Assembly: GCA_022646745.1 (NCBI GenBank)
Contig: CP060262.1
Span: forward strand, 3,870,001 to 3,902,000
Origin: Planctomycetales bacterium
GTDB lineage: Bacteria > 4484-113 > JAFGCY01
Direction: 5' to 3'
Length of the DNA: 32,000 nucleotides
Shown: one piece after another, positions 3,102 through 32,000 of the stretch
Layout: each line of letters starts with the position of its first letter
Position numbering within the stretch: position 1 is the first letter of the stretch
Program-made: the position numbers and the translations under genes
Notes under the pieces: generated by a model
What the model was told of the DNA's origin: nothing
The model's input: the letters and a program-made list of their open reading frames with translations, nothing else
Database searches by the model: none

Positions 3102-4004
3102 ATGAGAATTGCAATCCTGACACTGATCATGCTGCTTGCCGCCATCCCGGCGCAGGCCTACACCCCGAACGTCGGCGACCGAGCAAATGACATCAGCGGC
3201 CGCGACGTGGTGAACGGGGGCGTGGCCCAGCTGTCCGACTACCTCGGCAAGTGGGTGTTCCTCGATTTCTGGGCCGGCTGGTGCGGGCCCTGCGTCGGTG
3301 AGATGCCGAACATGGTGCGTGAAACCAGCCGCGTGAAGGAGCAGTTTGGCAACTTCCAGGTGTTCGGTGTCAGCCTCGATGCCGACAGCACCACCAACCT
3401 GCTGCACAAGTACATCAAGGAAAACAACGTCGACTACCCGGTGACCTACGATGGCAACGGCTGGTCCACCGTGCAGAGCGTGGAGTGGGACATCCACTCC
3501 ATCCCGGCCACCTTCCTGATCAACCCGCAGGGTGTGATCGTCGCCACCAACCTGCGGGGCGAGGCGCTCGGGCCGGCACTCGACTTCTTCGTCGGCTATG
3601 AAGGCACCTACGCCCCGATCGGCCTGAGCAGCAGCTCGGCAGCCAACGATGACGGCAGCGTCAGCCTGAACGTGGAGCTGTTCAGCCCGGACCACCAGCC
3701 GATGCAGCTTGAGGTGGACTACTACCACGTCAAGTACGAGTACACCGAGACTGAATCCGGCGAGCGCAAGCGCAGCGGCAGCGAGTTCATCGAGCCGGAC
3801 GAGGAGAATTCAGAGTTCAGCGAGACCGTCACGTTCGGCGACTTCGGTGACAGGAGCATGAGCTTCACCATTCCCGCAGTGGAGGGTGCCGAGCTCGTGG
3901 GCTACAGCATCCGCGTGAAGCTGCCCGGCACTGATTCCCTCAACGACGGCGAAGGCCTGTGGGTCAGTGACAGCGGCCGTGTACGCATGGAACTTGATAA
4001 GTAA
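3102..4004 (+). CDS. Exported TlpA/ResA-like thiol:disulfide oxidoreductase (CGPC active site) with a C-terminal ~130-aa domain of unknown function
   Basis: ORF track 3090..4004. The start is probably ATG 3102 (MRIAILTLIMLLAAIPAQA, signal peptide). GKWVFLDFWAGWCGPCVGEMP is the thioredoxin-fold CxxC motif. HSIPATFLINPQG contains the cis-Pro loop. The C-terminal extension is shared with the three paralogs below. Confidence 0.85.
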   Translation: MRIAILTLIMLLAAIPAQAYTPNVGDRANDISGRDVVNGGVAQLSDYLGKWVFLDFWAGWCGPCVGEMPNMVRETSRVKEQFGNFQVFGVSLDADSTTNLLHKYIKENNVDYPVTYDGNGWSTVQSVEWDIHSIPATFLINPQGVIVATNLRGEALGPALDFFVGYEGTYAPIGLSSSSAANDDGSVSLNVELFSPDHQPMQLEVDYYHVKYEYTETESGERKRSGSEFIEPDEENSEFSETVTFGDFGDRSMSFTIPAVEGAELVGYSIRVKLPGTDSLNDGEGLWVSDSGRVRMELDK

Positions 4005-4043
4005 TCCAGAAACAGAATCAGAAGCAGAAACAGGAGTAATGCT

Positions 4044-4946
4044 ATGAGGAACAAGATCCTGGCAATCGCGGCACTGGCAGCCATGCTGCTTCCCGCCGCG
4101 GCACATGCCCAGTTCGAGGCCAAGGCCGGCAACCGTGCACCGGAGCTGTTCGGCACGGATGCGGTGACCGGCGACTGGGTGGACATGGCCGACTTCAACG
4201 GCAAGTGGGTGCTGGCGGAGTTCTGGGCCACCTGGTGAGGACCCTGCATGAGGCAGTTGCCTCAGGTCGTCTCCGGTACCCGCGAACTGATTGACAACGG
4301 CAGGCTGGGGATGATCACCGCCAGCTACGACCGTGACAAGCAGGCCCTGCTCAATGTTATCGATGAGCGGGACATCACCTACCCCGTGATCTGGCAGAAC
4401 CAGGACAGCAATCGTGGCAACACGGAGGACTGGAACATCCGCGGCATCCCGACCACGGTGCTGATCAATCCGCAGGGCACCATCGTGGCTGACCTGCGCG
4501 CCGGTGAGGATTTCCAGCAGGTGCTGGAGTACTTCATCGAGCATGGCGAGGATCTCGGAGTGGTTGACATCAGCGGCAATGCCGTGACCCAGGATGACGG
4601 TTCCGTGAAGGTTGACCTCGAGATGTACTCCAGCCTGCACCGCGCTCTCGACGTGAAGGTCGAGGCCTACCGCGTGGTCTACAAGTGGGACGAGGAGAAT
4701 GACCCGAACCACGAAGGCCGCCCGCTGGACCGTGAATACATCGACCTGGCGGAGGAAGGGCATGACTTCTCCTTCACGCAGGACTTCAAGTGGTTCGCTG
4801 ATGCGGAGCACAGCTTCGTGATTGACAACATCGGAGAGGCTGACGCGGTTTACGTGATGGCCAGTGTGACCTACCCCGGCAGCGAGCACCTCAATGATGG
4901 TGAAGGTGTCGGCGTGTCCTTTGGTCGCAATGTGCCGCTGCCCTAG
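4044..4946 (+). CDS. Exported TlpA-like thiol:disulfide oxidoreductase, predicted selenoprotein (UGPC; in-frame TGA at 4236..4238)
   Basis: Track ORFs 4044..4238 and 4248..4946 are in the same frame. Read-through gives GKWVLAEFWATW-U-GPCMRQLP, with the TGA aligned to the first Cys of WCGPC in 3102..4004. The fold continues downstream with RGIPTTVLINPQG. GGAG lies 7 nt upstream of ATG 4044, and the N-terminus is a signal peptide (MRNKILAIAALAAMLLPAAAHA). Confidence 0.8.
4236..4264 (+). promoter_or_regulatory. Putative bacterial SECIS: UGA + 10 nt + hairpin UGAGG-CAGUUG-CCUCA
   Basis: The stem is 4249..4253 paired with 4260..4264, and the loop CAGUUG is 4254..4259. The same architecture with compensatory stem changes occurs at the other two TGA sites. 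Confidence 0.6.
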
Positions 4947-5473: not shown

Positions 5474-5587
5474 GGAGGTCTGGCGCAAGCCAGGCTCGGA
5501 GGTCGAGCGCAAGCTCGGCGCGGAGGCCTGACGCAAGCCAGGCTCGGAGGCCAGGTGCAAACCTGGCAGGAAAGTAATGAGCAATGA
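5474..5587 (+). repeat. Array B: four exactly 24-nt phased units of GGAGG + GCAA-tetraloop hairpin, then GGAAAG-TA-ATGAGCAATGA
   Basis: GGAGG starts at 5474, 5498, 5522 and 5546. The hairpins are CTGGC-GCAA-GCCAG, CGAGC-GCAA-GCTCG, CCTGAC-GCAA-GCCAGG (one A/C mismatch) and CCAGGT-GCAA-ACCTGG. GGAAAG is at 5569..5574 and ATGAGCAATGA at 5577..5587. Confidence 0.7.
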
Positions 5588-5747: not shown

Positions 5748-5792
5748 CCTGACTGGCGTCAGGCCCCCTCGCCTGGCTTGTGCCAGACCTCC
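5748..5792 (-). repeat. Array D: two units of the same family on the opposite strand
   Basis: The minus strand reads GGAGGT-CTGGC-ACAA-GCCAG-G-CGAGGGGG-CCTGAC-GCCA-GTCAGG. Confidence 0.5.
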
Positions 5793-5923
5793 ATTTCTTC
5801 GATATTTCGAAATTTCTGAAGTTTTATGTTTATAAATCCCCATGGCGGGGAATTACAAGTGGTTTCGAAAGGAGCAGGAACTTCTGAGAAGCCCCAACAA
5901 CAATATTCTCAGAGGTGAATGTC

Positions 5924-10994: not shown

Positions 10995-11933
10995 ATGAAA
11001 ACGATAAAGCTGATGGTCGCCGTGATGGTTCTCCTGTGGACCGCCCCGGCGCTGGCATTTGAAGCGGATGCGGGAAACCGTGCCCTGCCGCTCTACGGCA
11101 TCGACCGTGTCAGCGGAGACTGGGTTGACCTGGCCGATTACCGCGGCAAGTGGGTGCTGCTGGAGAACTGGGCCACCTGGTGAGGACCCTGCATGGGGCA
11201 GTTGCCCTATCTGCTGGACGAGACCAGTGAACTGCGCAAGCGCAGTGACTTCGCCGTGTTCACCGTGGCATTCGACAACCCGGACCGCGAGCAGGAAGTC
11301 GACAAGGTGATCCGCGAGAAGAAGATCCCGCATGTGGTGGTCTGGGACCACCGCGAGGCGACGGACCTTTCCAACAAGGCCGACTGGAACATCAAGGGCT
11401 TCCCGACCACCGTGCTCGTCAACCCCGATGGCATCATCCAGGGCAGCATGGACGTGGACGAGAACCTTGAGGAGAACCTGCTCTACTTCCTCGAGCAGGA
11501 CAGTGTCCCTGCCCCGATCGGACTGAGCTTCAGCAAGCCGACTGATGACGAGGGAAATGTCATGCTGTCGGACGATGGCTCGGTCAGGCTGACGATTGAT
11601 GTGTACAGCCCGACGCATGAGGATCTCGAAGTGATGGTCGACGTGATGGGCACGAAGATCAGCTATGATGACGAGAAGGATCCCGAGCACAAGGAACCGA
11701 ACTACGAGCCCGTCAACTACCGTGACGAGGGCCGTGCCCCGGACTTCACCGCCAGCTTCAGCCAGTACGGCAGTTTCACCAAGGACGTGATGCTGACGCC
11801 GGAGGAAGGCATGGGCTACCTGTTCGTGGTGGTCAGCGTGAAGATCCCCGGCACCGAGGCGCTCAACGGTGGAGAGGGACTGACGACGTCCAGCTTTGAC
11901 TTCATCAGCTTCCCGAAGGAAGATGCTGAGTAA
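10995..11933 (+). CDS. Exported TlpA-like thiol:disulfide oxidoreductase, predicted selenoprotein (UGPC; TGA at 11181..11183)
   Basis: Track ORFs 10995..11183 and 11193..11933 share one frame. Read-through gives GKWVLLENWATW-U-GPCMGQLP. GGAGG lies upstream of the ATG, and the signal peptide is MKTIKLMVAVMVLLWTAPALA. The cis-Pro loop is KGFPTTVLVNPDG. Confidence 0.8.
11181..11210 (+). promoter_or_regulatory. Putative SECIS hairpin A-UGGGG-CAGUUG-CCCUA-U
   Basis: The stem is 11193..11198 paired with 11205..11210 and includes one G:U pair. The loop CAGUUG is 11199..11204. The 5-bp core stem (UGGGG, 11194..11198) is 10 nt from the UGA as at 4236, and the extra A-U closing pair (11193/11210) shortens that gap to 9 nt. 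Confidence 0.55.
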
Positions 11934-11966
11934 GAAGGCCCGACTGATAAATGATTGATCCACAGT

Positions 11967-11997
11967 GGAGCCCGGCTGGGCTCCCCTGTTTGTTTCG
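11967..11997 (+). terminator. Rho-independent terminator between the two tandem Sec paralogs
   Basis: GGAGCCC-ggct-GGGCTCC is followed by cctgtttgtttcg. Confidence 0.6.
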
Positions 11998-12043
11998 TGG
12001 TGCGCTTCCGATATACTTCCCACAGACCTGAGAGGGAGTACAC

Positions 12044-12967
12044 ATGACCCGTACCATTCTGGCAACATGCCTGCTGGCCATCCTGCTGGCAGGCAGCCCC
12101 GCGCTGGCATTTGAACCGCTAAGCGGCACACGCGCCTACCCGATCAGTGGCACCGACATCGTCAGCGGCCAGCATGTGGACCTCGACCAGTACCTCGGCA
12201 AGTGGGTGCTGCTCGAGTTCTGGGCCACCTGGTGAGGACCCTGCGTCGGGCAGTTGCCCGAAGTGCAGGCATTGCATGAGCAGTTCGCGGGTCGCGATGA
12301 CTTTGCGCTCTTGTCAGTGAGTGGCGACTACCCCGACAGCATGGACGAACTGCGTCCGATGATTGAGGAATACGGCATCACCTACCCCGTGCTGCATGGC
12401 CTGGATGGCGATGAGCCTGACCTGCACGACTGGGATATTCTCGGATTTCCATCGGCCTTCCTGATCAATCCACAGGGCGTGGTCCTGCTGGAGACGCATA
12501 TCGGTGAGTACACAGCGGGCTGGCTGGAAACACTGCTCAACCTCGAGCAGGAGATTCCCGTGACCCAGCTTTCCGTGGACAATGAGCTGCTGGACAATGG
12601 CGGGCTGCGCTTCACTGTGCGTTCCGACAGGCAGCTGGATGTGCATGTCAATGTCGGCAAGATCCTCGAGGAGTACTGGGAAGATGTTGACGGAGAATGG
12701 CAGGAAGTGGAGAATCCTCCTGCCGACGCAGAGCCCAACATGAGTGCCTACCATTCACTTGACGACTGGGAGAACAGGATTGTCAGCCTTGAGCCGCTGG
12801 ATGGATCATTCGTCTACAGCTTTGAGATTGAGCCAGTTACGGACGACAACCTGTGGTTGATCCAGTGCAGTGTTTCAGCGCAGATCCCCGGAACCGAGGA
12901 GCTTGAAGCAATGCTTCCGATGCTGATGGCGGGAAGCGAATGGTTCAAGCCGGAATCGGATTCTTAG
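12044..12967 (+). CDS. Exported TlpA-like thiol:disulfide oxidoreductase, predicted selenoprotein (UGPC; TGA at 12233..12235)
   Basis: Track ORFs 12044..12235 and 12254..12967 share one frame. Read-through gives GKWVLLEFWATW-U-GPCVGQLP. AGGGAG lies upstream of the ATG, and the signal peptide is MTRTILATCLLAILLAGSPALA. The cis-Pro loop is LGFPSAFLINPQG. Confidence 0.8.
12233..12261 (+). promoter_or_regulatory. Putative SECIS hairpin UCGGG-CAGUUG-CCCGA
   Basis: The stem is 12246..12250 paired with 12257..12261, and the loop is 12251..12256. The second base pair is C-G here, versus G-C at 4250/4263. Confidence 0.55.
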
Positions 12968-12987
12968 GATATAATTTGCCTCCACGT

Positions 12988-13062
12988 CGGGCGGTAGCGC
13001 AGTCCGGTTAGCGCACTAGTCTGGGGGACTAGGGGTCGCGAGTTCGAATCTCGCCCGCCCGA
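12988..13062 (+). tRNA. tRNA-Pro (anticodon GGG)
   Basis: The hand-folded cloverleaf is 75 nt. Acceptor CGGGCGG/CCGCCCG, D arm GCGC-AGTCCGGTTA-GCGC, anticodon arm CTAGT-CTGGGGG-ACTAG, variable loop GGGTC, T arm GCGAG-TTCGAAT-CTCGC, discriminator A. G37 fits Pro. No CCA is encoded. Confidence 0.9.
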
Positions 13063-13085
13063 TATTCCTTTTCCTTATCGCGTTC

Positions 13086-16982: not shown

Positions 16983-17233
16983 GCGGAGGGGAAGCGGAGT
17001 GTAGCTCTATGAGCTGCAGGGACTTGTCGGTCTTAAAACCGACATTCCGGAAAATGGCAAGCGTGAAAATCTTCTCTGTCTCTCAGAATCTCAGTGGCAA
17101 ATGCACGGATCTGTTGCCACTGAGCCACGGAGTCACTGAGAATACAAAAGAGTCAATCCATAATGAAGCTGTAGCGGTGCGCCCCTGGCGTAATTGAGAG
17201 TGGATGTTGTGAAGTGAGCATGGCACTTGTGAA

Positions 17234-17285
17234 GTAGGGCGGCGGTAATACCGCCGCCTGGGATGGGGTTTTACCCCATCCCTAC
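17234..17285. repeat. GTAG-headed double hairpin closed by GTAGGG/CCCTAC
   Basis: GTAGG-GCGGCGGT-aat-ACCGCCGC-c-tg-GGATGGGG-tttta-CCCCATCC-CTAC. It has the same GTAGGGC head as the hairpins flanking the RAYT gene. Confidence 0.5.
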
Positions 17286-17343
17286 GTCATGTGTTTGGCA
17301 AGATGGACAGGCTGCATCCTGCTTCGCGGGATGCAGCACCCCT

Positions 17344-17494
17344 GGTCAGTCCTGCCTCCGGCGGGACTGACCTCCGCTTCCAATTGTCAGCTTTACAGCT
17401 GACCTCCGTCACTCATCCAAACTCCGCACTCCAACCGCCAAACTCATTGTCAGCTTTACAGCTGACCTCCGCGCCAGGCTTGCGCCAGATCTCC
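17344..17494 (-). repeat. Array C: GGAGG + hairpin units (GTAA/GCAA loops) starting at the hflX stop codon
   Basis: The minus strand reads TAGGAGAT-CTGGCGCAAGCCTGGCG-C-GGAGG-TCAGCT-GTAA-AGCTGA-...-GGAGG-TCAGCT-GTAA-AGCTGA-...-GGAGG-TCAGTCC-loop-GGACTGA. The plus-strand segment attgtcagctttacagctgacctccg occurs twice exactly (17383..17408 and 17446..17471). Confidence 0.6.
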
Positions 17495-18738
17495 TAGTCG
17501 TCCATGATGCGGGCCAGCTGTTCTTTTTCACTCAGTGGCATCACGGGCTCAGGCTGGCTGTCGCGGATGGCAACGAGGCGTGTGAGCAGGCCATCGATCC
17601 CCTCCCCCGTTGCAGCACTGATGAACAGCGCATCGGGGTAGCTGCTGCGCAGCAGCTCCAGTTCCTCCGGGTCGGCGAGGTCCAGCTTGTTGAACACCAG
17701 AAGTTCCGGCATGTTCTCAAGCCCGATCTGCCGAACGATCTGGCGCACCGCTTCGATCTGGTCCAGCACGCGCAGGTGTGAGGCATCGGCCAGGTGCAGG
17801 AGCAGGTGGCTGCCCGCCATTTCATCCAGCGTGGCGCGGAATGCGGTAACCAGCTCCTCCGGCAGGTCGGCAATGAAGCCGACGGTGTCCGTCAGCAGCA
17901 TGCGGCTGCCATCCGGCATGTACAGGGCACGCGCCGTCGGGTCCAGCGTGGCGAAGTACTTGTCCTCGCTCAGCACCCCGCCGCGGGTCAGGCGGTTGAG
18001 CAGGGTGCTCTTGCCGACGTTCGTGTAGCCAACGATGCTGGCGGTGAACACGCCGGAGCGCACACGCTGCTGGCGGCGCAGTTCACGCTGGCCGCGCAGC
18101 TTGTCGAGGCGCTTCTCGATCTGCACGATGCGCTTGCGGTGCTGGTCCTTGACGCGGCGGGTCAGCTGTTCACCGGGGCCGATCGTTGAGGTGCCACCGG
18201 CGCTGCCACCACCGATGCTGTCAAGCTTCTCGTAGCTGCGCATCACGCGCGGCAGCTCATACTTGAGCTGCGCCAGCTCGACCTGCAGCTTGCCGTCGGC
18301 GGTGACGGCGTTGTCCTCGAAGATCGCGAAGATCATGTCGTAGCGGTTGAGCACGACGAGCTTGCTGTCAACTTCCCAGTTGCGCTGGTGCACGGCTGAG
18401 ATCGGCGCGGAAATGGCAATCAGGTCCACCTCACTCGCCTTGGCGCGCTCCACCACCTGCTCCATCTGGCCGCTGCCGAGGTAGTAGCGGCTCTGGCGCT
18501 CCTTCAGGTTGATCTCCATCATGTCGGCGATCTCAAGCCCGGAGGCATTTGCCAGTTCGGTGAAGTCGCCGGTCTCGCTCTCGGCCAGCAGCTCACGGTC
18601 ATAGCGGCGCGCCAGCTCGTCAACGAGGCCTGAATTGTCAACCCTCCCGGGTTCGGCGGGGAATCGCGGCTGCCGTTCATGGACGACAACGAGCAGGGCC
18701 TTCAGTCCGCCCAGCTTTGCCTTGCGTGGATCACTCAA
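17494..18738 (-). CDS. hflX: GTPase HflX
   Basis: 414 aa. G1 is GYTNVGKSTLLNRLT, G3 is LLTDTVGFI and G4 is VFNKLD. An HflX-type N-terminal domain is also present. The start is TTG, 7 nt after the upstream stop. Confidence 0.9.
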   Translation of the reverse strand: MSDPRKAKLGGLKALLVVVHERQPRFPAEPGRVDNSGLVDELARRYDRELLAESETGDFTELANASGLEIADMMEINLKERQSRYYLGSGQMEQVVERAKASEVDLIAISAPISAVHQRNWEVDSKLVVLNRYDMIFAIFEDNAVTADGKLQVELAQLKYELPRVMRSYEKLDSIGGGSAGGTSTIGPGEQLTRRVKDQHRKRIVQIEKRLDKLRGQRELRRQQRVRSGVFTASIVGYTNVGKSTLLNRLTRGGVLSEDKYFATLDPTARALYMPDGSRMLLTDTVGFIADLPEELVTAFRATLDEMAGSHLLLHLADASHLRVLDQIEAVRQIVRQIGLENMPELLVFNKLDLADPEELELLRSSYPDALFISAATGEGIDGLLTRLVAIRDSQPEPVMPLSEKEQLARIMDD

Positions 18739-22605: not shown

Positions 22606-24789
22606 ATGAAGGGATTGATAGTGGCAGCGCTCGTGGCCTGCCTCGTACTGGCGGGTTGCCCCGGCAGGGACGGCGACAACACGGGCAAGGCGCCCTCCGG
22701 CAAGTACGGGGAATACAGCCTGAAGCTGAGGGATGCGACTGCCTTCGAAGCGGAACTGAAGCGCCTGCAGGAGCATTTCGCGGGTGATGGCAGCGCCAGC
22801 GCGGTGACGAGCGGCAGCGCGCAGCTCAACTACAAGCTCGGACAGCGCGTGCGCGAGGATGGCATCGCGGTTGTGATGCGTGACAACACGACGGATGAGG
22901 AGCTGGTGCTGTGGGTCTGGCGCGACAGCACGGGCCAGCAGGCGGCACCGCAGCTTGTCAACCAGCAGGAGCTGGGCGGCGGCGGGATGAGCCTGCAGTA
23001 CCAGCTGGACGAGGGTGTGTTCCTCGCGCTCAGCCTGCGCTGGGTACAGGACCGCTACCTTGAGGTGAAGCGCAACTACGAGGCCGGCGGGCTGGATGCG
23101 GAGTTGCCAATGGGCAGCGATTACACCGCATGGACACTGGAGCTGCCGCCCCTGCCCTACCGACTGGCCGCCGGGGCCAGCGGGCCATTCGGCGTGCTGG
23201 AGGAAGCGCAGGCCGATGGGGCCTGGCACAGTGCGAACTATCCCGGGGAGCTGATGCTGCCAGCGCTGGCGGCCTACGACCAGAGCCGCGGCGTGCTGCT
23301 GGCGATCTCGGATGAGCATCCGCGACGGATGGACCGGGAGTACCACTGCGGCTGGCGGCTGGCCAACGGGATGGATGGCAATGATGGCAACCGGCAACTC
23401 AGCATCGACTACACGGTCTTCAACACCACGGTGGACGGCTTCACTGAGCCGCTGCTGATCAGCGGCCTGCCGCAGCGTGACAGCGTGGTGCTGGAGCCGT
23501 TCAGCTTGCAGCCGACGACGATGGAGGACAGTTTCGTGGCAGGCACGACCCAGCAGGTGGCTGACCGCATGAGCGACTTCGTGGCGGCCTTCCACGCACG
23601 CTACAGCCCGCGGCTCGTGACGGAGCAGCATACGATGCTGGATGCGCCGGGGATCAGCCCGGATACAAGCGGGGCGGAACTGGCAGCACTGCATGAGGTG
23701 CTGGAACTGAAGACCGGGCTGTGGGACACGGCGGGGATCATCACGGACACACGAACCGGGGCATCCTTCCCGGACGGACTGGCAATAGCCGGCCTGCCTG
23801 AGGATGCGGCGGTGAAGTGTGACGAATTCGGCATCACACAGTGGCAACGGGTCTCGCCCTTCAGCCTGCCGGCGGACAGCCCGGAACTGAAGAGCGACAG
23901 GGAACTGGCACTGCTGGACAAGCCTGGCAATGGCCCGGGCCGGGTGCCACTGAGGATCAGGCGGCCGCAGACCGCTGACAGCCTGCTCAGTGCGTTCGAC
24001 GGCGTAACTGGCAAGGCGCTGCTGCTGGACCTGGACACGCTCGTGACGGGAGGCCAGGACCCCCGCAGCCAGCCGCTGGCCGGCAGCCAGCAGGCGGCGG
24101 CGGCGATGCTGGCAATGAAGATCTGTGAGGACAACTCAGCGAAGGAACAGCCGCTCAGGCTGGCGATTGAGGGACTTCCGAGCCTCGGCATGCCGCCCTG
24201 TGCGGACATCTACCTGCTGCCCCATGCGGCGGACGGGCCGCTGCTGCGCGACCGGATACTGGGCATGCTCACGCTGCGCATCTTCGGCGTGCCGGCCTGG
24301 CCGGGGCACGGGATTGACAACAGCGCCGGGCTTGCGGCAGCCGTGACGGAGAACAGTGCCGGGCTGGTGGTGGACTATGAGCTGGCGCGTGGCAGCGCCG
24401 ACAGGCTGCTGCAGGCCAACCTCGAGCTGTTCCGTGAGGCCGGCAAGCTGGATGACTACGTGATGATGCACTGCGAGCCACGCTACGGCAGCTACACCCT
24501 GACCGGCGAGGCGCCGGCCAGCCCGGATGCCCTGCTGCTCGGCCTGCCGGCCAAGTGGAGCGGGCGCAGCCTGGTGCGGGTCTGCATCTTCGGTACCGGT
24601 GTTGATGCGCTGGTGGACCGCGAAATGATGATGCTCAACCTGCAGCTTGGCAACGGAGGCAGCGTGCTGCAGCCGATGCCATTTGGCAACTATGAGATCC
24701 AGAATGAGCAGCCGGAGGCGATCCCGGCCGGGGATGCGTTGCTGCTGATGCGCAACCTGGCGACGCCGGAGACCCAGGGACGCAGCTAG
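22606..24789 (+). CDS. Large lipoprotein of unknown function (727 aa)
   Basis: This is the in-frame part of track ORF 22396..24789. ATG 22606 gives MKGLIVAALVACLVLAGCPGRDG, a lipobox signal. The upstream part of the track ORF overlaps csaB on the opposite strand and is not credible. I recognise no domain. Confidence 0.6.
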   Translation: MKGLIVAALVACLVLAGCPGRDGDNTGKAPSGKYGEYSLKLRDATAFEAELKRLQEHFAGDGSASAVTSGSAQLNYKLGQRVREDGIAVVMRDNTTDEELVLWVWRDSTGQQAAPQLVNQQELGGGGMSLQYQLDEGVFLALSLRWVQDRYLEVKRNYEAGGLDAELPMGSDYTAWTLELPPLPYRLAAGASGPFGVLEEAQADGAWHSANYPGELMLPALAAYDQSRGVLLAISDEHPRRMDREYHCGWRLANGMDGNDGNRQLSIDYTVFNTTVDGFTEPLLISGLPQRDSVVLEPFSLQPTTMEDSFVAGTTQQVADRMSDFVAAFHARYSPRLVTEQHTMLDAPGISPDTSGAELAALHEVLELKTGLWDTAGIITDTRTGASFPDGLAIAGLPEDAAVKCDEFGITQWQRVSPFSLPADSPELKSDRELALLDKPGNGPGRVPLRIRRPQTADSLLSAFDGVTGKALLLDLDTLVTGGQDPRSQPLAGSQQAAAAMLAMKICEDNSAKEQPLRLAIEGLPSLGMPPCADIYLLPHAADGPLLRDRILGMLTLRIFGVPAWPGHGIDNSAGLAAAVTENSAGLVVDYELARGSADRLLQANLELFREAGKLDDYVMMHCEPRYGSYTLTGEAPASPDALLLGLPAKWSGRSLVRVCIFGTGVDALVDREMMMLNLQLGNGGSVLQPMPFGNYEIQNEQPEAIPAGDALLLMRNLATPETQGRS

Positions 24790-26243
24790 CGGCCCCTGCG
24801 CTCCCTTCGTTTGAGCTTCTTCGCCACTTCCGCAGCGATGTCACCGGGCGAGTCATGCAGCCAGCCCGCAAACGGGTTGAGCATGTCCGGCGTGGCCGGG
24901 ATGCTGCGGCTGCGCGGACTGCCCCAGCCCTCGAACAGGCGCGGCAGCTTCGGCGGCAGGTGCACCTCAGGCTGCGGCTCCACTGCTTCAGCCGGGGCGC
25001 TGCCAACGGCGTCCTGCACCGGGTCAGCGTGGGCCGGTTCCCCATGCTCTTCGGCAACAGCTGGATTAGTTTCCGGGCCGTCATCCAGCCAGCCCTCGAG
25101 CGGATTGACTGGTACACTGCGTGGCGGCAGCGGCTCATCCAGCCAGCCGTCCAGCGGGTTGCGCGGTGTGCTGCGCGCGTTGCCACTGCGCGGGATGTAC
25201 GGCAGGTCGGCCCAGTCCTCTTCCGGTGCCTCCACGAAGCTGCCATCCGGAGTGATCTCCAGCAGGCTCTCACCCTCCGGCAGGCGGTGCACGGGAGCTT
25301 CAGGCAGGGGTGGCATGCTGAGATTGCCACGCGGGGCCGGCTGCTCCAGCAGTTCCGGGAAGTGCGAGGGATGCAGGCCGCTGTCCGGCTGCTCCACGAG
25401 GTCAGCGGTGGATTCGTCGAGCTGGCCCAGCAGCGCGCTGTCAGCGACGGGCCAGTACCATTCGGCAATGTAGGGTTCATACTGCGGCAGGCACATGTCC
25501 GGCTCACAGGCCACGAACTGCTCGAGCACCATGCAGGCGATGTTCTTCGTGAGCGCAATCGCGAAAGGGTAGTCACGCGCCGCGAACTCGACTGTCAGCA
25601 GGTAGTGGCTGCCATCAATCACGCGCAGCACGCGCAGCTCGCCACTGACGGAGCTGTAGACCGGATCGCCTTCGACCGTTGGATGCATGAGCGGGCTCGG
25701 CAGCACTGCGCTGTAGCCAATGTACTCGCGGCTGCAGTTCTCCTTGTCCCGCGGGTCCGTCAGTCCCAGCGGGGAGCGCATCTCCGTCACACTGTAGCCG
25801 CTGTCAGTGCGCTGCTCGCGGGCGATCTGTGACCTGCGGGCCATGTAGGCCGCGCTTTCGTCGAAGCTCAGTCGCAGCGGGTTGGCATCTCCCTTGACCG
25901 GGCTCATGCGCAGGCTGGCAACAGCCTGGAAGCTGCCGCCGGCGGGATCGTGCGACATAAGCTGGATACTGCTCAGGCCATGGCCGGGGTACGGCAGTCC
26001 CTTATGCCAGGCCCCCTGGTTGTAGATGTATGGCTCATCCTCCACCGGGTGCAGCAGCATCCCGGGAGGGGCGATCGTGCTCCATTCCAGGCCGGACAGC
26101 ACCGGTGCCTGCTGGGGCCACTGCATGGTGGAGGCAGGCAACTCGTGGATGTCCGGCAGGCTGCGGCGTTCCTCCACGCGGGCATGCGCGGCAAGCGGCA
26201 GCAGCAGGCAGATCGCAGGCAGCAGTCGTGCAACAGGGTGCAT
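24786..26243 (-). CDS. Secreted protein of unknown function with C-terminal NPxxGWL repeats and a basic tail
   Basis: This is part of track ORF 24786..26345. The internal Met at 26243 gives MHPVARLLPAICLLLPLAAHA, a signal peptide. The track start lies inside a terminator hairpin. The C-terminus carries NPLDGWLDE, NPLEGWLDD, NPFAGWLHD and ends KKLKRRERRGR. Confidence 0.55.
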   Translation of the reverse strand: MHPVARLLPAICLLLPLAAHARVEERRSLPDIHELPASTMQWPQQAPVLSGLEWSTIAPPGMLLHPVEDEPYIYNQGAWHKGLPYPGHGLSSIQLMSHDPAGGSFQAVASLRMSPVKGDANPLRLSFDESAAYMARRSQIAREQRTDSGYSVTEMRSPLGLTDPRDKENCSREYIGYSAVLPSPLMHPTVEGDPVYSSVSGELRVLRVIDGSHYLLTVEFAARDYPFAIALTKNIACMVLEQFVACEPDMCLPQYEPYIAEWYWPVADSALLGQLDESTADLVEQPDSGLHPSHFPELLEQPAPRGNLSMPPLPEAPVHRLPEGESLLEITPDGSFVEAPEEDWADLPYIPRSGNARSTPRNPLDGWLDEPLPPRSVPVNPLEGWLDDGPETNPAVAEEHGEPAHADPVQDAVGSAPAEAVEPQPEVHLPPKLPRLFEGWGSPRSRSIPATPDMLNPFAGWLHDSPGDIAAEVAKKLKRRERRGR

Positions 26244-26313
26244 GTGGGGTATATCGGCAGGGGAAAGAGGTGGTTGAACCCTGGCTGGCAGACCGGCGAG
26301 CCTTCGGGCGAGA

Positions 26314-26373
26314 CGGCAAATCAAAAAGGCTCCACGATTTCTCATGGAGCCCTACCAAGTTAGGGGGGATGGT
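26314..26373. repeat. 60-bp direct repeat, copy 1
   Basis: cggcaaatcaaaaaggctccacgatttctcatggagccctaccaagttaggggggatggt is identical to 27700..27759. The flanks are unrelated on both sides. Confidence 0.9.
26318..26351 (-). terminator. Rho-independent terminator (minus strand) inside repeat copy 1
   Basis: The minus strand reads GGCTCCA-tgagaaatcg-TGGAGCC-TTTTTGATTT. Confidence 0.7.
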
Positions 26374-26391
26374 TCCGTCAATGTCTCCTTT

Positions 26392-26586
26392 CTATTTCAA
26401 AGGTCTCTTGAACCAGAGGAAGTGCATTAGTTCTACATAGTCCAAACTTCCCCCCGGAGAAACCGTTTCAGCATAAGCAGAAACAAGTTCCCATTCTTCG
26501 TTTCCCATCTGGGCCAAACGATTGTTGACATCTCTTTCAGACTGCCGACCCTCAACAAAGGAAATCATACAATGTTCCCATTTCAT
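26392..26586 (-). CDS. DUF4177-like small protein
   Basis: 64 aa. MKWEH...LAQMGNEEWELVSAY...WFKRPL matches my recollection of the DUF4177 pattern (MkwEY..., GeeGWELV, ...fKRp). The coding sequence is low in GC. Confidence 0.55.
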   Translation of the reverse strand: MKWEHCMISFVEGRQSERDVNNRLAQMGNEEWELVSAYAETVSPGGSLDYVELMHFLWFKRPLK

Positions 26587-26596
26587 CCCTGAATCC

Positions 26597-27166
26597 TCAC
26601 TCCTCAGCGCAAAGCAGTGCGAAATACGTTACTGTGTCACGAATAGCCTCTTGGTCAAAGTAAGTCTCTTGGTTGTATAGGCCTTCTATGACCACTTTGG
26701 ACAAGTCAAATTCCTCCAGCGTCCTCACAAAATCCACTTCAGCATTCCCCTCACCCTTATTGGAAATCAGAATCACGCTGGAAAACTCTATGTAGACGTT
26801 AGCCTTTGAAAGCTCCTTTGACACATAGCTTTTGGAGAACTCTTCAGACTTTCCAACTCCAACAGCCTTAGAAAAAGTCTCCCCGTTGTATTCAACGTAG
26901 AACCAGCACTTGCTTGGCAACAACCTTTCTTCCTGAATACTGCCAATGTTAAGAACCAGCCTGTAGCAAGACCTGTCACTTTCAGGCTGTTCTATGGTTA
27001 GGTACACATGAGGGGACTCCGTAGGGATTCCGCTCTTGTGAGTGTGGACAATGACTCCTTCGTCCTCAAAGTAATCAACAGCGAATCTGTCACTAAGTTC
27101 TTCAGCATATGAAAAGGAACTCAGTGAAATGAAAGCCAGAAAACACAGAATAAATATATTTCTCAT
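26597..27166 (-). CDS. Secreted protein of unknown function (189 aa)
   Basis: This is part of track ORF 26597..27298. ATG 27166 has GAGGT 9 nt upstream and gives MRNIFILCFLAFISLSSFSYAEE, a signal peptide. The sequence is low in GC and I recognise no domain. Confidence 0.55.
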   Translation of the reverse strand: MRNIFILCFLAFISLSSFSYAEELSDRFAVDYFEDEGVIVHTHKSGIPTESPHVYLTIEQPESDRSCYRLVLNIGSIQEERLLPSKCWFYVEYNGETFSKAVGVGKSEEFSKSYVSKELSKANVYIEFSSVILISNKGEGNAEVDFVRTLEEFDLSKVVIEGLYNQETYFDQEAIRDTVTYFALLCAEE

Positions 27167-27204
27167 TATAAGTTTACCTCGGGCACTTACTATGGTTGTT
27201 GGAT

Positions 27205-27495
27205 TCATTGTGCCAATGCACTTAACCCCAAACCACCAACCATAGCAACCAAGAAATAGGCCAAGAATGGAAGCACAATGAACACCCATACAATGCAACC
27301 AAGTGATTGAGCAATTGAACTAAGTTTCTTGTGCGTCGTTTCTGTCAACTCTAGAACGTCATTGTGATAATTGCAAAGGTCTTGTCTAAGAGCTCTATTT
27401 TCATTGACCAGCAATGTGAGTCTCTTACATACTCTGTCATTTTCCTTTTCTAATGCTTCAAGAAAGTCCTCTTGGCTTCTACCTGCAGTATCCAT
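27205..27495 (-). CDS. Tail-anchored coiled-coil membrane protein (96 aa; alternative starts up to 27552)
   Basis: ATG 27495 is preceded by AGGTGA 5 nt upstream. MDTAGRSQEDFLEALEKENDRVCKRLTLLVNENRALRQDL is a coiled-coil-like heptad sequence. The C-terminus LGCIVWVFIVLPFLAYFLVAMVGGLGLSAL is hydrophobic. Confidence 0.45.
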   Translation of the reverse strand: MDTAGRSQEDFLEALEKENDRVCKRLTLLVNENRALRQDLCNYHNDVLELTETTHKKLSSIAQSLGCIVWVFIVLPFLAYFLVAMVGGLGLSALAQ

Positions 27496-27699
27496 AACTT
27501 CACCTTCTGGAATTGTTGGGCTCATTGTAACCATAGTGACCCTTTGAATCAAGGATTAGTCAGTCAGTAACTTGTTTCACGAGTCTCAACTCAAGCGCTA
27601 TGGCAACAGCATGGAAGGGAAGTTCAAGGTCATCAGACAAACCACGAGCTGGCGACTTCAAGTCGAAGGAATGGTTCAGCAAGAATTCTGATGATTCCG

Positions 27700-27759
27700 C
27701 GGCAAATCAAAAAGGCTCCACGATTTCTCATGGAGCCCTACCAAGTTAGGGGGGATGGT
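27700..27759. repeat. 60-bp direct repeat, copy 2 (contains the same minus-strand terminator at 27704..27737)
   Basis: 60/60 identity to 26314..26373, offset 1386 bp. Confidence 0.9.
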
Positions 27760-27880
27760 AAGCGCTGTGTCATGGGCGCACACAACGCAATTAAGTCATA
27801 CCCGATCAGGGCAGGCTCTACAAGTGGCAATGCCCGATTTCTGCGGAATTCAGCCCAATTCAGATGTTTTGGGGCTGTTG

Positions 27881-28300
27881 TCAGTCGCGCTGCGAGGCAT
27901 TGTGCTCGCGCAGCACTCGCCTGACAATGCTGCGCAGACGGCGGGCGCGGTTGCCAGACAGGGGCTGCGTGTCAAGACTCGCAAGTACGGGGACAGCAGT
28001 CTCCCGCGCTGGCGGATCCGTTTCCAGGCCCAGCGACAGGCTGGCCTGTGCGTCGTCCCTGTGTGAGGCCAGTTCAGGTTGTCCGGCATGGCCAAGCCTG
28101 AGCGGCAGTTCGAGCCGGGCTGAACTGAGCAGCGCATGCTGGCCCAGCTCATCGCGGATCCGGCTGATGCCGGGCAGAGCATCAGCCAGCGGGATTGCCG
28201 GAGCGCGCAGGATATGCGGCAGGCTGCCGTCGCGGCCGTAGAGACCGAGCACCAGGTCGAGTTGTAATTCGCCGGGATCCTGCATTCTGACTGTCCGCAC
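27881..28300 (-). CDS. Hypothetical protein
   Basis: 139 aa from GTG 28300, or 134 aa from ATG 28285. This frame shows the strong G/C third-position bias seen in the other real genes, unlike the overlapping ORFs. I recognise no motif. Confidence 0.45.
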   Translation of the reverse strand: MRTVRMQDPGELQLDLVLGLYGRDGSLPHILRAPAIPLADALPGISRIRDELGQHALLSSARLELPLRLGHAGQPELASHRDDAQASLSLGLETDPPARETAVPVLASLDTQPLSGNRARRLRSIVRRVLREHNASQRD

Positions 28301-28547: not shown

Positions 28548-31500
28548 ATGAGAACCGTTATTGTCGGTGCCATTGCACTTGTTATGCTCTGCCTGGGACT
28601 GGCGTCCTGCGGTGGAGGCGGAGGACAGAAGGGACAGTTTGAATTCACCGGGAACCCTGAGCGATTCAGCCTGAACGTGCTTGATGACAGCGCACTGGGC
28701 GGGGAACTGCACGGTGAGTTCGAACTGAAGCGCCACGACGAGGGGGATACCGTGGTGCTTGAGCTGCAGGGTCGCTCAGTGGAGGACCTGCGCGCGCTGT
28801 ACTGCGAAGTCGAATTCAACCCGAACCTGTTCACCCCCGCCAGTGCGGAACGCAGCACGCTCTTGGGACAGGCCGGCGTACTGGAACTGGCGGTGCTGGA
28901 TGTACCGGGCACCGTCACACATGGCCAGCTGCTGATCCACCCGGATGAGCACAGCGGATTCAGTGGCGACGGCGTACTGGCAACGATGCGCTTCACGCGC
29001 CGGCCGATGGAGGAGTTCCGCACGGTATCCACACCACCCTCTGACCCGGCCAGCCAGAGCATGCCGCAGTTCGACAGCGTCAGCGGAGAGCTGAGCTGGC
29101 TGTACCGCAGCACCGGCGACTACGACCAAAACGGCCTGATCACGATCTCCGACCTGACACCGATGGGTGTCAACTTCGGCGAGTCTGACCCTGATGGATT
29201 CGCTGACACCAGCGTGCTGAGCGTGGTGGACGGCGACGGCAACAATGTGATCAACATTTCCGACATCACCCCGATCGGCATCGGCTTCGGCCGCAGCACC
29301 AGTGGCGGCTACAACATCTACCGCAGCGGATCAGCCGATGAATATCCGGCCACTCCCCTGGGAGAGAATGGCAATGGCGCACAGCTGCTGGGCAACCTGC
29401 CGTTCAGTACGGCGGTCGGCAACCCGACGGTGGACCGGCTGGCCTTCAGCTTCGAAGTCAGCGACCCGCAGACCCCCGGCTTCTACTGGATCCGGCCGCA
29501 GGACGGGGCCGGCAACGAGGGTTATGCGTCCACGATGGTCAGCCCGCCGGACGGCAGCCTGCCGGTGCTGAGCGTCCCGCTGCCGCCGGCCGAGGGCAGT
29601 GGCAGCCTGGCGGACCCCTACGTCGTCAAGGCGGATGACAGCGTGCAGTTCATGCTGGTGGACGCGGACTCCAATGACGTGACAACGGATATGCTCAGCA
29701 GCTTCACGGCAACGCCGGCTGAAGCGGCCGGCTTCGGCACGAATGACGGCCTGTTGACGGTCAAGCAGGGCTACGTCGGCGCGTTCAGCGTCAGTGCAAG
29801 CTTCGACGGGCTGTCCGCCGCTCAGGTGATTCGCTTCAGTGTCGGCCCACCGGACGGCAGCCCGGTGGCGATCCTGAATGCCAATAAGCAGTATGGCTCG
29901 ATCCCGCTGAGCGTGAGCTTCGATGCCGGCGACTCGCTCTCCCCCGGTGGCGAGGGATTCATCGTGGACTACGCCTTTGACTGGGAGGATGACGGGGTCT
30001 ATGACGACTTCGGCACCACCACCGTCAAAAGCCACAGCTACGCCGAGACCGGGCAGTACACGGCACGGCTGCGGGTGACTGACAACAAGGATCGAACGGC
30101 TGAAGCAACACTGAACATCCTGGCATACCTGCCAAACGGCCCGAATGCGCAGCTGGTCGCCACGCCGTTCAACGGGCAGGAACCCCTCCCGGTGGACCTC
30201 GACGCCTCAGGCAGCACGCCGAAGCCCGATACGGAGATCGTGGAGTTCCAGTTCGACTTCGACAACGACTTCGCCTTTGACGACGGCACCAACAGCACGG
30301 GACTGCTGTCCACCGTGTTCGAGACCGCGGGGGTGATCCCGGCGCGCGTCAAGGTGATCGATGACAACGGGCTGTTCACGGTGGCCGAGCGCAAGGTCAC
30401 CGTCAGTGCGAATGCGCCGCCGACTGCACTGCTGGCACTCGACCCTGAGGCACCGTACTACCTGCCGGCCACGATTGACATCGATGCATCTGGCAGCTCC
30501 GATATTGACGGCAACATCATCGGCTACAGCTTCGACTTCGACGGTGATGGTGAATTTGACTACGAAGGACTGGATGCGAACCACCAGTACACCTACGACG
30601 TGGCCGGTGACTACACGATCACCCTCAAGGTGACTGACAACGGCCAGAAGACCGGCATGCAGAGCATCCCGATCTCAGTGTTCGAGGATGACCGGCCGGT
30701 GGCTGAGCTGGTGGCGGACGTGACGAGCGGGCTCAACCCGCTGACGGTCAACTTCGATGCGACGGGCAGCACTGACCCGGAGAATATGATCGTGGCCTAC
30801 GAGTGGGACTTCAACGGCGACGGCGACTTCTCCGACCTGAGCGAAACGACAGGCGTGGCGCAGTTCGACTACATCAGCGCCGGCAACTTCGAGGCCGGCG
30901 TACGGGTGCGGGATGCGGATGACAACACATCGATCGCCACGGTCACGATCGCGGTCACCGAGAACAAGGCACCGAATGCGGACGTGCGGGCGGACAAGCT
31001 CAGCGGCTTCACCCCGGTCACGGTCGAGTTCGACGGCAGCAACAGCACGGACCTGGATGGCACGATTGAGCTGTACGAATGGGACGTGGACGGCGATGAC
31101 GACTTCGATGACGGCTATGGCAACGTGGATACGATCAGCATCTTCTACGACAACACCGGCGGAGCCTTCACGATCAAGCTGCGCGTGACGGATGACAAAT
31201 TCAAGAGCAGCACGGACAGCGTGACCGTGAACATCACGAACAACCTCCCGCCGGTGGCTGACATCCAGGCTGATGTGACGAGCGGCTTCAGGCCCCTGCA
31301 TGTGAACTTCGACGCCACGGCTTCGATTGACCCGGACGGCACGATCGCCAACTACCGCTGGGACTTCGATTACGACGGTGTGAGCCCGAGCTTTGAGCTG
31401 GAAGGCGCTGAGGACCAGCCGCAGTGGATTTTCAATGATGCAGGCGGTAGCCCGTTTACAGTGCTGCTGGAAGTGATTGACAATGGCGGCAAGAGCAGCC

Positions 31501-32000
31501 AGGCAACGATCGAGATCACAGTGATGGACAATGATGACCCGGAAGCAAGCCTGACTGCTAATGGCATGGTATTCGACCTTAACACTCCTACGCCAATCGA
31601 ATTCGACGCATCAGGCAGTATGGACGTCAACGGTGATGTCATCACGGCGGACTGGGACTTTGACGGCGATGGGACCTTTGAGATTGAAGATGCTGACAAG
31701 GAAGTTCCACAGCAGTATTCCGGATGGAGCCTACCCGGCATGTACCTGGCGACGGTGATCATCACTGATGAGCATGGCGCGAGCGACTCCGCCATCTGGC
31801 CTGTGACGGTCACCGGCGGACAGCCGCCCCCGACCGTGACGATGAGCTCCCCCTGCGTGCAGGGTGAAGCCCCGCTGGCGGTGTACTTCGATGCCGACGG
31901 TTCCGATTCCAACGGCGTGATTGAGAAGTACGAGTTTGACTACGACGGCCCGGTCGGCGGCTGGAACTGGCAGGAGAGCGGCAAGGCGGACAAGGCCAGT
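28548..32000 (+). CDS. Giant surface lipoprotein: cohesin-like domain + dockerin-type Ca-binding repeats + at least 8 tandem PKD domains (3' end beyond window)
   Basis: It is absent from the ORF track because it has no stop, but I translated the frame by hand and it is open from ATG 28548 (GGGAGG upstream) to 32000. MRTVIVGAIALVMLCLGLASCGGGGG is a lipobox signal. DYDQNGLITISDLTPMGVNFG and DGDGNNVINISDITPIGIGFG are a dockerin repeat pair. The repeated pattern P.A...A....G..PL.V.FDASGS.D.DG.I..Y.WDFDGDG ... VTD is PKD-like. Confidence 0.85.
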   Translation, partial: MRTVIVGAIALVMLCLGLASCGGGGGQKGQFEFTGNPERFSLNVLDDSALGGELHGEFELKRHDEGDTVVLELQGRSVEDLRALYCEVEFNPNLFTPASAERSTLLGQAGVLELAVLDVPGTVTHGQLLIHPDEHSGFSGDGVLATMRFTRRPMEEFRTVSTPPSDPASQSMPQFDSVSGELSWLYRSTGDYDQNGLITISDLTPMGVNFGESDPDGFADTSVLSVVDGDGNNVINISDITPIGIGFGRSTSGGYNIYRSGSADEYPATPLGENGNGAQLLGNLPFSTAVGNPTVDRLAFSFEVSDPQTPGFYWIRPQDGAGNEGYASTMVSPPDGSLPVLSVPLPPAEGSGSLADPYVVKADDSVQFMLVDADSNDVTTDMLSSFTATPAEAAGFGTNDGLLTVKQGYVGAFSVSASFDGLSAAQVIRFSVGPPDGSPVAILNANKQYGSIPLSVSFDAGDSLSPGGEGFIVDYAFDWEDDGVYDDFGTTTVKSHSYAETGQYTARLRVTDNKDRTAEATLNILAYLPNGPNAQLVATPFNGQEPLPVDLDASGSTPKPDTEIVEFQFDFDNDFAFDDGTNSTGLLSTVFETAGVIPARVKVIDDNGLFTVAERKVTVSANAPPTALLALDPEAPYYLPATIDIDASGSSDIDGNIIGYSFDFDGDGEFDYEGLDANHQYTYDVAGDYTITLKVTDNGQKTGMQSIPISVFEDDRPVAELVADVTSGLNPLTVNFDATGSTDPENMIVAYEWDFNGDGDFSDLSETTGVAQFDYISAGNFEAGVRVRDADDNTSIATVTIAVTENKAPNADVRADKLSGFTPVTVEFDGSNSTDLDGTIELYEWDVDGDDDFDDGYGNVDTISIFYDNTGGAFTIKLRVTDDKFKSSTDSVTVNITNNLPPVADIQADVTSGFRPLHVNFDATASIDPDGTIANYRWDFDYDGVSPSFELEGAEDQPQWIFNDAGGSPFTVLLEVIDNGGKSSQATIEITVMDNDDPEASLTANGMVFDLNTPTPIEFDASGSMDVNGDVITADWDFDGDGTFEIEDADKEVPQQYSGWSLPGMYLATVIITDEHGASDSAIWPVTVTGGQPPPTVTMSSPCVQGEAPLAVYFDADGSDSNGVIEKYEFDYDGPVGGWNWQESGKADKAS

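Follow-up and report, generated by a model that had tools for sequence, protein, structure and literature searches.

The 32,000-nucleotide stretch analysed here (positions 3,870,001 to 3,902,000 of contig CP060262.1, hereafter the window) comes from a genome labelled Planctomycetales bacterium and carries a cassette of three genes set between two identical copies of a 60-bp block. The DNA between the copies is compositionally foreign, the cassette is present or absent within one strain, and comparative alignments identify the block as the predicted 3' two-thirds of a conserved structured small-RNA gene, comprising an invariant C-rich hairpin and the terminator. The features of the locus, all on the minus strand and ordered from upstream to downstream, are as follows.

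27881..28285, minus: host gene of 134 aa upstream of the RNA (window open reading frame, ORF)
27795..27823, minus: candidate small-RNA promoter, TTGTAG-17-TATGAC (from sequence and alignments)
27709-27788, minus: predicted small RNA of ~80 nt with three hairpins (covariation and covariance model)
27700..27759, minus: upstream copy of the 60-bp repeat, attL-like; 3' part of the intact small-RNA gene, with hairpin 2, terminator and 9-nt tail
26374..27699, minus: foreign cassette of 1326 bp (by composition; not in contigs L017 and L028)
27524..27552, minus: sigma-70-like promoter candidate, TTGATT-17-TACAAT (from a consensus scan only, which is not evidence of function)
27205-27534, minus: orfA, 109 aa (96 aa if the start is the ATG at 27495), with a predicted coiled coil and a C-terminal transmembrane helix
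26597-27166, minus: orfB, 189 aa, its N-terminus resembling a signal peptide
26392-26586, minus: orfC, 64 aa
26314..26373, minus: downstream copy of the 60-bp repeat, attR-like; partial small-RNA copy without promoter and hairpin 1
24786..26243, minus: host gene of 485 aa with a signal peptide, downstream; a homologue comes after the small RNA in all lineages examined

A foreign three-gene cassette between identical repeats

The two copies of the block agree at 60/60 positions with a start-to-start distance of 1386, exactly as an earlier note made from the sequence had stated. No such repeat occurred by chance in 100 shuffles (0/100), and the window holds no third copy at up to 3 mismatches. 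Further copies, full or partial, numbered 0 in ~36 kb of the source genome and 0 in 19.6 kb of the related metagenome-assembled genome (MAG) UBP7 HKST-UBA01 (hereafter UBA01), and the 24-nt hairpin core of the 60-mer had 0 matches in 185,579 GTDB species representatives, JGI metagenomes and IMG/VR. These results do not support the suggestion, made in the same note, that the block might be a repeated terminator of the repetitive extragenic palindromic (REP) type, and they set it apart from dispersed REP-like repeats. Each copy does contain the two elements named in the note: a minus-strand terminator, found by terminator scan, with the stem GGCTCCATGA/TCGTGGAGCC followed by TTTTT, and a small inverted repeat, CCCTA..TAGGG, located inside hairpin 2 of the small RNA. 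The downstream copy ends 70 nt upstream of the 485-aa gene and provides the terminator of the cassette operon.

GC content between the repeats is 0.432, against 0.615 in the remaining window, corresponding to a z of -5.6 relative to 279 windows of equal size, of which the lowest reaches 0.545. The low-GC interior thus stands as originally described, while the 57-62% given for the outside was slightly low for the DNA directly beside the cassette, where GC is 0.62-0.70. Codon usage and tetranucleotides, named at the time as a suitable check, deviate as well, with GC content at third codon positions (GC3) of 0.34-0.49 in the three cassette ORFs versus 0.71-0.88 in nine host genes, and a tetranucleotide L1 distance of 0.758 versus 0.264 +/- 0.038 (maximum 0.392) for other windows. 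The 1326 bp between the repeats is therefore compositionally foreign DNA. Searched as a whole unit by blastn against phage and plasmid collections, it gave no match, and its termini, CGGAATCATC... and ...CATTGACGGA, are not inverted repeats of each other.

The three genes share the minus strand, as had been reported, and their products yielded nothing beyond sub-threshold coiled-coil noise in Pfam, PHROG, PADLOC and NCBIfam. For orfA, annotated elsewhere as H7A35_15710 / MCB1221981.1, only family libraries and viral contigs were searched, returning sub-threshold coiled-coil matches in Pfam and PHROG and no match in viral contigs. A search of 5.8e9 clusters with orfB returned the protein itself alone, viral contigs held no match to it, and a single distant homologue (P0004; 25% identity, E 2e-6) was found among 1.84e9 representatives. 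P0004 is encoded at 1706-2305 of an unrelated contig (L031), within a GC dip (0.50-0.52 versus 0.60-0.67) adjoining an ornithine carbamoyltransferase gene; this locus has no flanking direct repeats and neither orfA nor orfC. The homology search with orfC likewise returned essentially itself alone, and its provisional description as a DUF4177-like protein was dropped when Pfam gave no DUF4177 match. Single-sequence AlphaFold2 models of orfB (predicted local distance difference test score, pLDDT, 36) and orfC (pLDDT 67, all-helical, low confidence) were too poor for structure search. The orphan status of all three cassette proteins leaves no basis for predicting a functional benefit.

Upstream of these genes lies a non-coding leader of 165-204 nt, its length being set by the orfA start used. 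If the candidate promoter at 27524..27552 is in use, orfA would start at 27495. Together with good ribosome-binding sites, this candidate suggests a self-contained expression unit whose transcripts would end where the RNA terminator occurs for the second time. Within the leader (27553-27699, minus), CTTGA also occurs at four places spaced 33-42 nt apart, and the near-palindrome CGACTTGAAGTCG is present as well. Enrichment of CTTGA is marginal (61/2000 shuffles), and the copies could be protein-binding sites of the arm type or chance.

A conserved small RNA at the insertion site

The earlier note had missed that the 60-mer coincides with the 3' part of a small RNA, consisting of its last 51 nt followed by a 9-nt tail. 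That the duplicated block is this 3' part explains why a long stretch including a terminator is duplicated. In an alignment of 10 lineages, compensatory changes affect five pairs of hairpin 1, which is variable, and three of the terminator hairpin (hairpin 3), and hairpin 2, UACCA-UCCCCCCUAACU-UGGUA, is invariant save for a one-C deletion in the loop of contig L040. When the structure was placed on the alignment, 100% of cells were paired, against 35-46% in slid controls, and its covariation was reached by 0/500 shuffles. Between the stop codon of the 134-aa gene and the far end of the upstream 60-mer, the non-coding DNA gave a folding z of -5.15 versus shuffles, and it is 98% identical to UBA01, compared with 79-85% for the adjacent coding sequence.

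Conservation of the core extends much further. The 27-mer CCATCCCCCCTAACTTGGTAGGGCTCC, common to the window and UBA01, has exact matches in five JGI metagenome contigs (L032-L036) that do not align otherwise, and lies again upstream of independently fetched homologues of the 485-aa protein (L037-L042), with one C fewer in L040; the protein P0006 was not located on a contig. The 27-nt core is thereby kept even where identity of the flanking protein has fallen to 33-50%. A covariance model of the RNA detected a single copy at each locus, scoring 78-105 bits; within the window, the full copy (27694-27791) reached 86.3 bits and a partial one (26308-26382) 42.9 bits. Rfam 15 contains no matching family and gave nothing in the window at E <= 10; weak resemblances to RF02353 BjrC68 (22.5 bits versus a gathering score of 39) and ctRNA_p42d were discarded, the first aligning over the terminator alone and the second being terminator-driven.

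A promoter is predicted for the small RNA at a fixed distance upstream. In the UBP7 lineages, this place is occupied by TTGnAn-N17-TATGAn (TTGTAG, TTGTAA or TTGCAA), and in six non-UBP7 lineages by GAAC-N17-CGTC, a motif with a resemblance to promoters of the extracytoplasmic function (ECF) sigma type. The RNA is followed after 70-330 nt by a same-strand homologue of the 485-aa protein (33-93% identity) on contigs L028, L032, L033, L034, L036, L037, L040 and L041, and it is uninterrupted in all 8 other lineages. With its conserved promoter motif and gene neighbour, the small RNA is a candidate for a new Rfam family.

Regulatory small RNAs (sRNAs) with C-rich loops are known from other bacteria, including sX13 of Xanthomonas and the CcsR or "cuckoo" RNAs of Rhodobacter. 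Our small RNA would resemble these and BjrC68 in being short and multi-hairpin, with an exposed C-rich loop, an intrinsic terminator and, in several lineages, a stress-type promoter motif; it differs in that no Rfam model matches it significantly.

Genes of the 485-aa family are directly preceded, in the window (26236-26313, minus) and at the equivalent places of L037, L040, L041 and L032, by a conserved motif, GCCGAT(A/C)TA..CCC(AC)ATG, which has the look of a -10 element at a distance of just 5-7 nt from the start codon. This arrangement suggests that the mRNA of the 485-aa gene is leaderless and has its own promoter. If so, the gene would not simply be read through from the small RNA.

Occupied and empty alleles

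The locus was recovered from public assemblies by exact-protein look-ups. Both junctions are spanned by JAGRNS010000041.1 (L001), by the ENA scaffold of SAMN08389186 (L002) and by two MEGAHIT k141 contigs, ERZ27309115 and ERZ27309238 (L003 and L004), and one junction is crossed by ~12 more contigs, all at 99.8-100% identity to the window. As k = 141 exceeds the 60-bp repeat, the junctions of L003 and L004 are read-supported. A 4.11-Mb NCBI contig named "MAG: Planctomycetales bacterium" carries the cassette genes under locus tags H7A35_15695 to 15715. The lack of an accession for orfC there could suggest a cassette-free genome, but orfA and orfB have H7A35 locus tags and the site is occupied. 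orfC is annotated in the JAGRNS MAG (KDL30_15065); the two genomes were annotated inconsistently for this 64-aa ORF. One ENA scaffold (L022) begins with 113 nt (1-113) that match neither the window nor the related loci and join it inside the 134-aa gene, at window position 27952; this start is probably a chimeric scaffold end.

We give practically no credence to the notion that assembly created the occupied arrangement artificially, by joining unrelated sequences chimerically where they share a k-mer. It would draw on the behaviour of contigs in the repeat, where many SPAdes-type contigs break with overlaps of exactly 55 nt (k = 55, below 60) and Logan contigs with 30 nt, such that some contig ends are graph effects. 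These 55-nt and 30-nt ends are k-mer effects and were not used as evidence. Speaking against an artefact, both junctions are spanned by no fewer than four contigs that differ in sample and assembler, MEGAHIT at k = 141 among them, and the cassette genes are annotated in the H7A35 contig as well.

The empty site carrying a single 60-mer, proposed earlier as something to look for in relatives and metagenomes, was found twice. Contig L017 (ERZ27309125, k141, 1716 nt) consists of the upstream flank, one 60-mer and the downstream flank, with 0 mismatches to the window. UBA01 (L028), in which alone among GTDB representatives the neighbouring 727-aa gene was found, lacks the cassette and has the site once, at 94.4% identity over 9.5 kb. 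The simple layout that had been predicted from removal of 1386 bp thus occurs naturally in both. Since L017 is empty and the window-type contigs are occupied, both alleles coexist in one strain background; the cassette is present or absent within one strain, and the sister lineage is empty. A second empty allele, proposed from the end of L019 ("TCT"), was dropped, as a de Bruijn graph at k < 60 can explain it.

Across samples, 4 single-nucleotide polymorphism (SNP) sites lie in the cassette versus 2 in the longer flank (~4 kb), from which the insertion is recent, yet not brand new; it is possibly reversible. The opposite polarity, in which the cassette is ancestral and the empty alleles of L017, UBA01 and other lineages arose by independent deletions, would be helped by the SNP counts and by the ease of deletion between perfect 60-bp repeats. 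It is nevertheless very improbable and close to refuted, as GC, GC3 and tetranucleotides are grossly foreign, eight divergent lineages have the uninterrupted RNA-gene arrangement, and the cassette proteins have no relatives in those eight lineages.

A circular form is not demonstrated. The Logan contig L006 measures 1416 nt, or 1386 + 30, its first 30 nt equal its last 30 nt, and it starts exactly at the repeat boundary, which places a graph branch there. It was considered as a circle and set aside, since a k = 31 graph of the occupied allele in linear form gives the same contig when the exit edge from the repeat into the downstream host flank is missing or clipped.

Immediately beside the cassette site, the window and UBA01 differ by a second large indel. 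The 1529-aa gene with PKD domains at 28548-32000 (plus) is absent from UBA01, where ABC-transporter genes follow directly (L028, 14423-14745).

Possible routes of acquisition and movement

Several properties of the locus were observed directly, namely the foreign composition, the exact duplication, the identity with the RNA 3' end, the occupied and precisely empty alleles, and the relatives without the cassette. From composition, repeat and single-60-mer empty site, the proposal of a foreign insertion with an att-type duplication holds. Our preferred explanation, to which we would give somewhat less than an even chance, is that the cassette is a cargo-only islet at the 3' part of the small RNA, similar to a cis-mobilizable element (CIME), and moved by a site-specific recombinase acting in trans. 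A horizontally acquired operon of 1326 bp, with three orphan genes, a promoter candidate and no recombinase, would have entered the 3' part of the small-RNA gene. The incoming DNA would have brought along, or picked up, a duplicate of the final ~60 bp of the RNA gene, with C-rich hairpin, terminator and tail, and recombination within the 60-bp block would have left one copy per side, like attL and attR. In this way, the RNA gene would remain intact upstream, and the second copy would terminate the cassette operon just before the 485-aa gene. The reaction itself might be conservative site-specific recombination by a tyrosine or serine recombinase encoded elsewhere, the cassette being either a CIME-like hitchhiker or the remnant of a larger integrative element, and excision would yield a circle of 1386 bp.

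Integrases commonly target the 3' ends of tRNA, transfer-messenger RNA (tmRNA) and some sRNA genes, duplicating that end, and the ryeB and ryeE sRNA loci are among the cited examples of integration targets (PMC3603311). By analogy, the attL/attR-type duplication of an RNA-gene 3' end proposed here is of a general kind already known. As in such islands and prophages, the repeat covers the 3' portion of a structured RNA gene, beginning with a symmetric hairpin and reaching the gene end, the gene is regenerated, the DNA is foreign, and precise empty sites (attB) are found in L017 and L028. In contrast to them, no integrase lies beside the att site or within 32 kb, the element measures only 1.3 kb, its target is an uncatalogued small RNA, and the identity runs through the lineage-specific terminator. 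CIMEs retain attL and attR and have no integration genes (PMC6323972). The cassette is like them in its intact identical flanking repeats and its cargo-only content without integration or transfer genes; unlike them, it has no known cognate integrative and conjugative element, integrative and mobilizable element or accretion partner, and described CIMEs are mostly from Firmicutes and larger. The cassette would thus work like a CIME, with membership hinging on a helper element.

Four points weigh against the trans-acting recombinase. The enzymatic step is pure inference, no recombinase having been identified: none was found in orfA-C by Pfam, PHROG, NCBIfam or PADLOC, in agreement with the earlier note, which saw no integrase or transposase inside the cassette, and no recombinase Pfam domain was found in the larger ORFs of the window (32 kb) or 4.5 kb beyond. 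No contig recovered contains a larger parent element flanked by the 60-mer. Had an attP evolved in another host, only the invariant hairpin would be expected to match, yet the identity spans loop and tail, although the terminator loop is lineage-specific (GAGGTGAAAGCCTT in UBA01 versus ATGAGAAATCGT in the window) and UBA01 is only 90% identical over the 60-mer, differing in terminator loop and tail. Finally, the small RNA has no insertions in the 8 other lineages, such that no integration hotspot is visible. The lineage-specific identity implies that the element cycled within the lineage, that a long target duplication of host DNA occurred, or that RecA acted on 60-bp homology.

The last of these, the main rival, is unlikely but deserves serious weight. 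Here, homologous recombination by RecA on the 60-bp block would drive gain and loss without a dedicated recombinase, by Campbell-type integration of circular or transformed DNA carrying the host 60-mer, deletion between the repeats, and spread via flanking homology. Perfect repeats over 60 bp, including the lineage-specific terminator and tail, are what is expected if both copies come from the host lineage's own DNA, and the missing recombinase nearby and the empty allele in an identical background fit equally. A length of 60 bp also exceeds the minimum for RecA recombination in Escherichia coli. RecA leaves unexplained how DNA of 43% GC was first joined to a host 60-mer. Moreover, the edges of the block coincide with the start of the invariant hairpin on the left and the end of the RNA gene on the right, which is the pattern of an integrase and a coincidence under pure homology.

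A long target-site duplication would account for the same identity in another way and is considerably less probable. In this scheme, host DNA was cut with a stagger of 60 nt at either end of the hairpin-2-to-terminator block, and gap filling followed the joining of a linear fragment of 1326 bp, through an enzyme resembling a transposase or casposase, or end-joining capture at a staggered break. Both copies would then be of host type and identical at lineage-specific positions, as found; no attP-bearing parent element was found, and the block is bounded by structured DNA with two hairpins. The cassette has neither terminal inverted repeats nor a transposase, and known target-site duplications in prokaryotes are of 2-15 bp. 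Furthermore, the insertion is a single occurrence, and the precise empty allele in an identical background fits reversible recombination more easily. The absence of inverted ends and transposase and the 60-bp duplication, instead of 2-15 bp, equally separate the cassette from insertion sequences, transposons and miniature inverted-repeat transposable elements.

Improbable as well is an autonomous-looking mobile circle of 1386 bp that has no recombinase gene and uses the hairpin and terminator of the conserved small RNA as its attachment site, being moved by a host recombinase in trans or by a mechanism of its own kind that duplicates 60 bp. If true, the cassette mRNA would be a second source of the regulatory hairpin via its 3' copy of the RNA core, and the locus would represent a minimal "RNA-gene-tail cassette" system on an sRNA gene, analogous to integron cassettes. 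The cassette does resemble integron cassettes, and the clusters of attC sites lacking integron integrases (CALINs), in its small size, its capacity to circularise in principle, the lack of a recombinase inside and a structured site of ~60 bp 3' of the ORFs. The 60-mer is, however, not an attC: its ends are unpaired, single-strand folds giving two local hairpins, and it lacks R''/R' core sites, the sole GTT (GTTAGGG) not fitting GTTRRRY and its inverse CCCTA lying ~6 nt off. It is instead a segment of a host RNA gene; the cassette has three genes and its own promoter candidate, and there is no IntI, no array and two copies of the site.

The locus offers a clean natural case of a cassette caught present and absent in one strain of the uncultured lineage UBP7 (labelled Planctomycetales). 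Two findings are added here: the proposed attachment site is the 3' tail of a small RNA that is conserved yet uncatalogued, and a single strain segregates for the two alleles. Discovery of a trans-acting recombinase would make enzyme and cassette together a minimal cargo module flanked by att sites.

Other features of the window were noted in passing. The gene for tRNA-Pro(GGG) at 12987-13063 (plus), a classical integration target, shows no island signature; the next gene encodes an aldo/keto reductase and no integrase. Inverted copies (91% complementary) of a 33-nt element at 2354-2386 and 2962-2994, each with a hairpin GGGCAGCAC..GTGCTGCCC, bracket a 175-aa ORF (2386-2913, minus) that has no Pfam match and lies in a patch of GC ~0.54; this patch may be another small bounded insertion, or the pair may be bidirectional terminators. 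A palindromic unit of ~24 nt, GGAGGTCTGGCGCAAGCCAGGCTC, is intergenic and occurs in tandem and dispersed inverted copies (window 5474-5567, 5753-5793 and 17453-17494; L028 4433-4803), and window 17027-17496 is replaced in UBA01 by another stretch with a repeat of the GGAGGTCTGGCGCAAGCCAGGCTC type. These repeats are a REP-like family unrelated to the 60-mer. Lastly, 3146-4289 and 11045-12484 contain four diverged paralogous segments of the thioredoxin-like / AhpC-TSA type (61-75% identity), arranged as two pairs ~7 kb apart.

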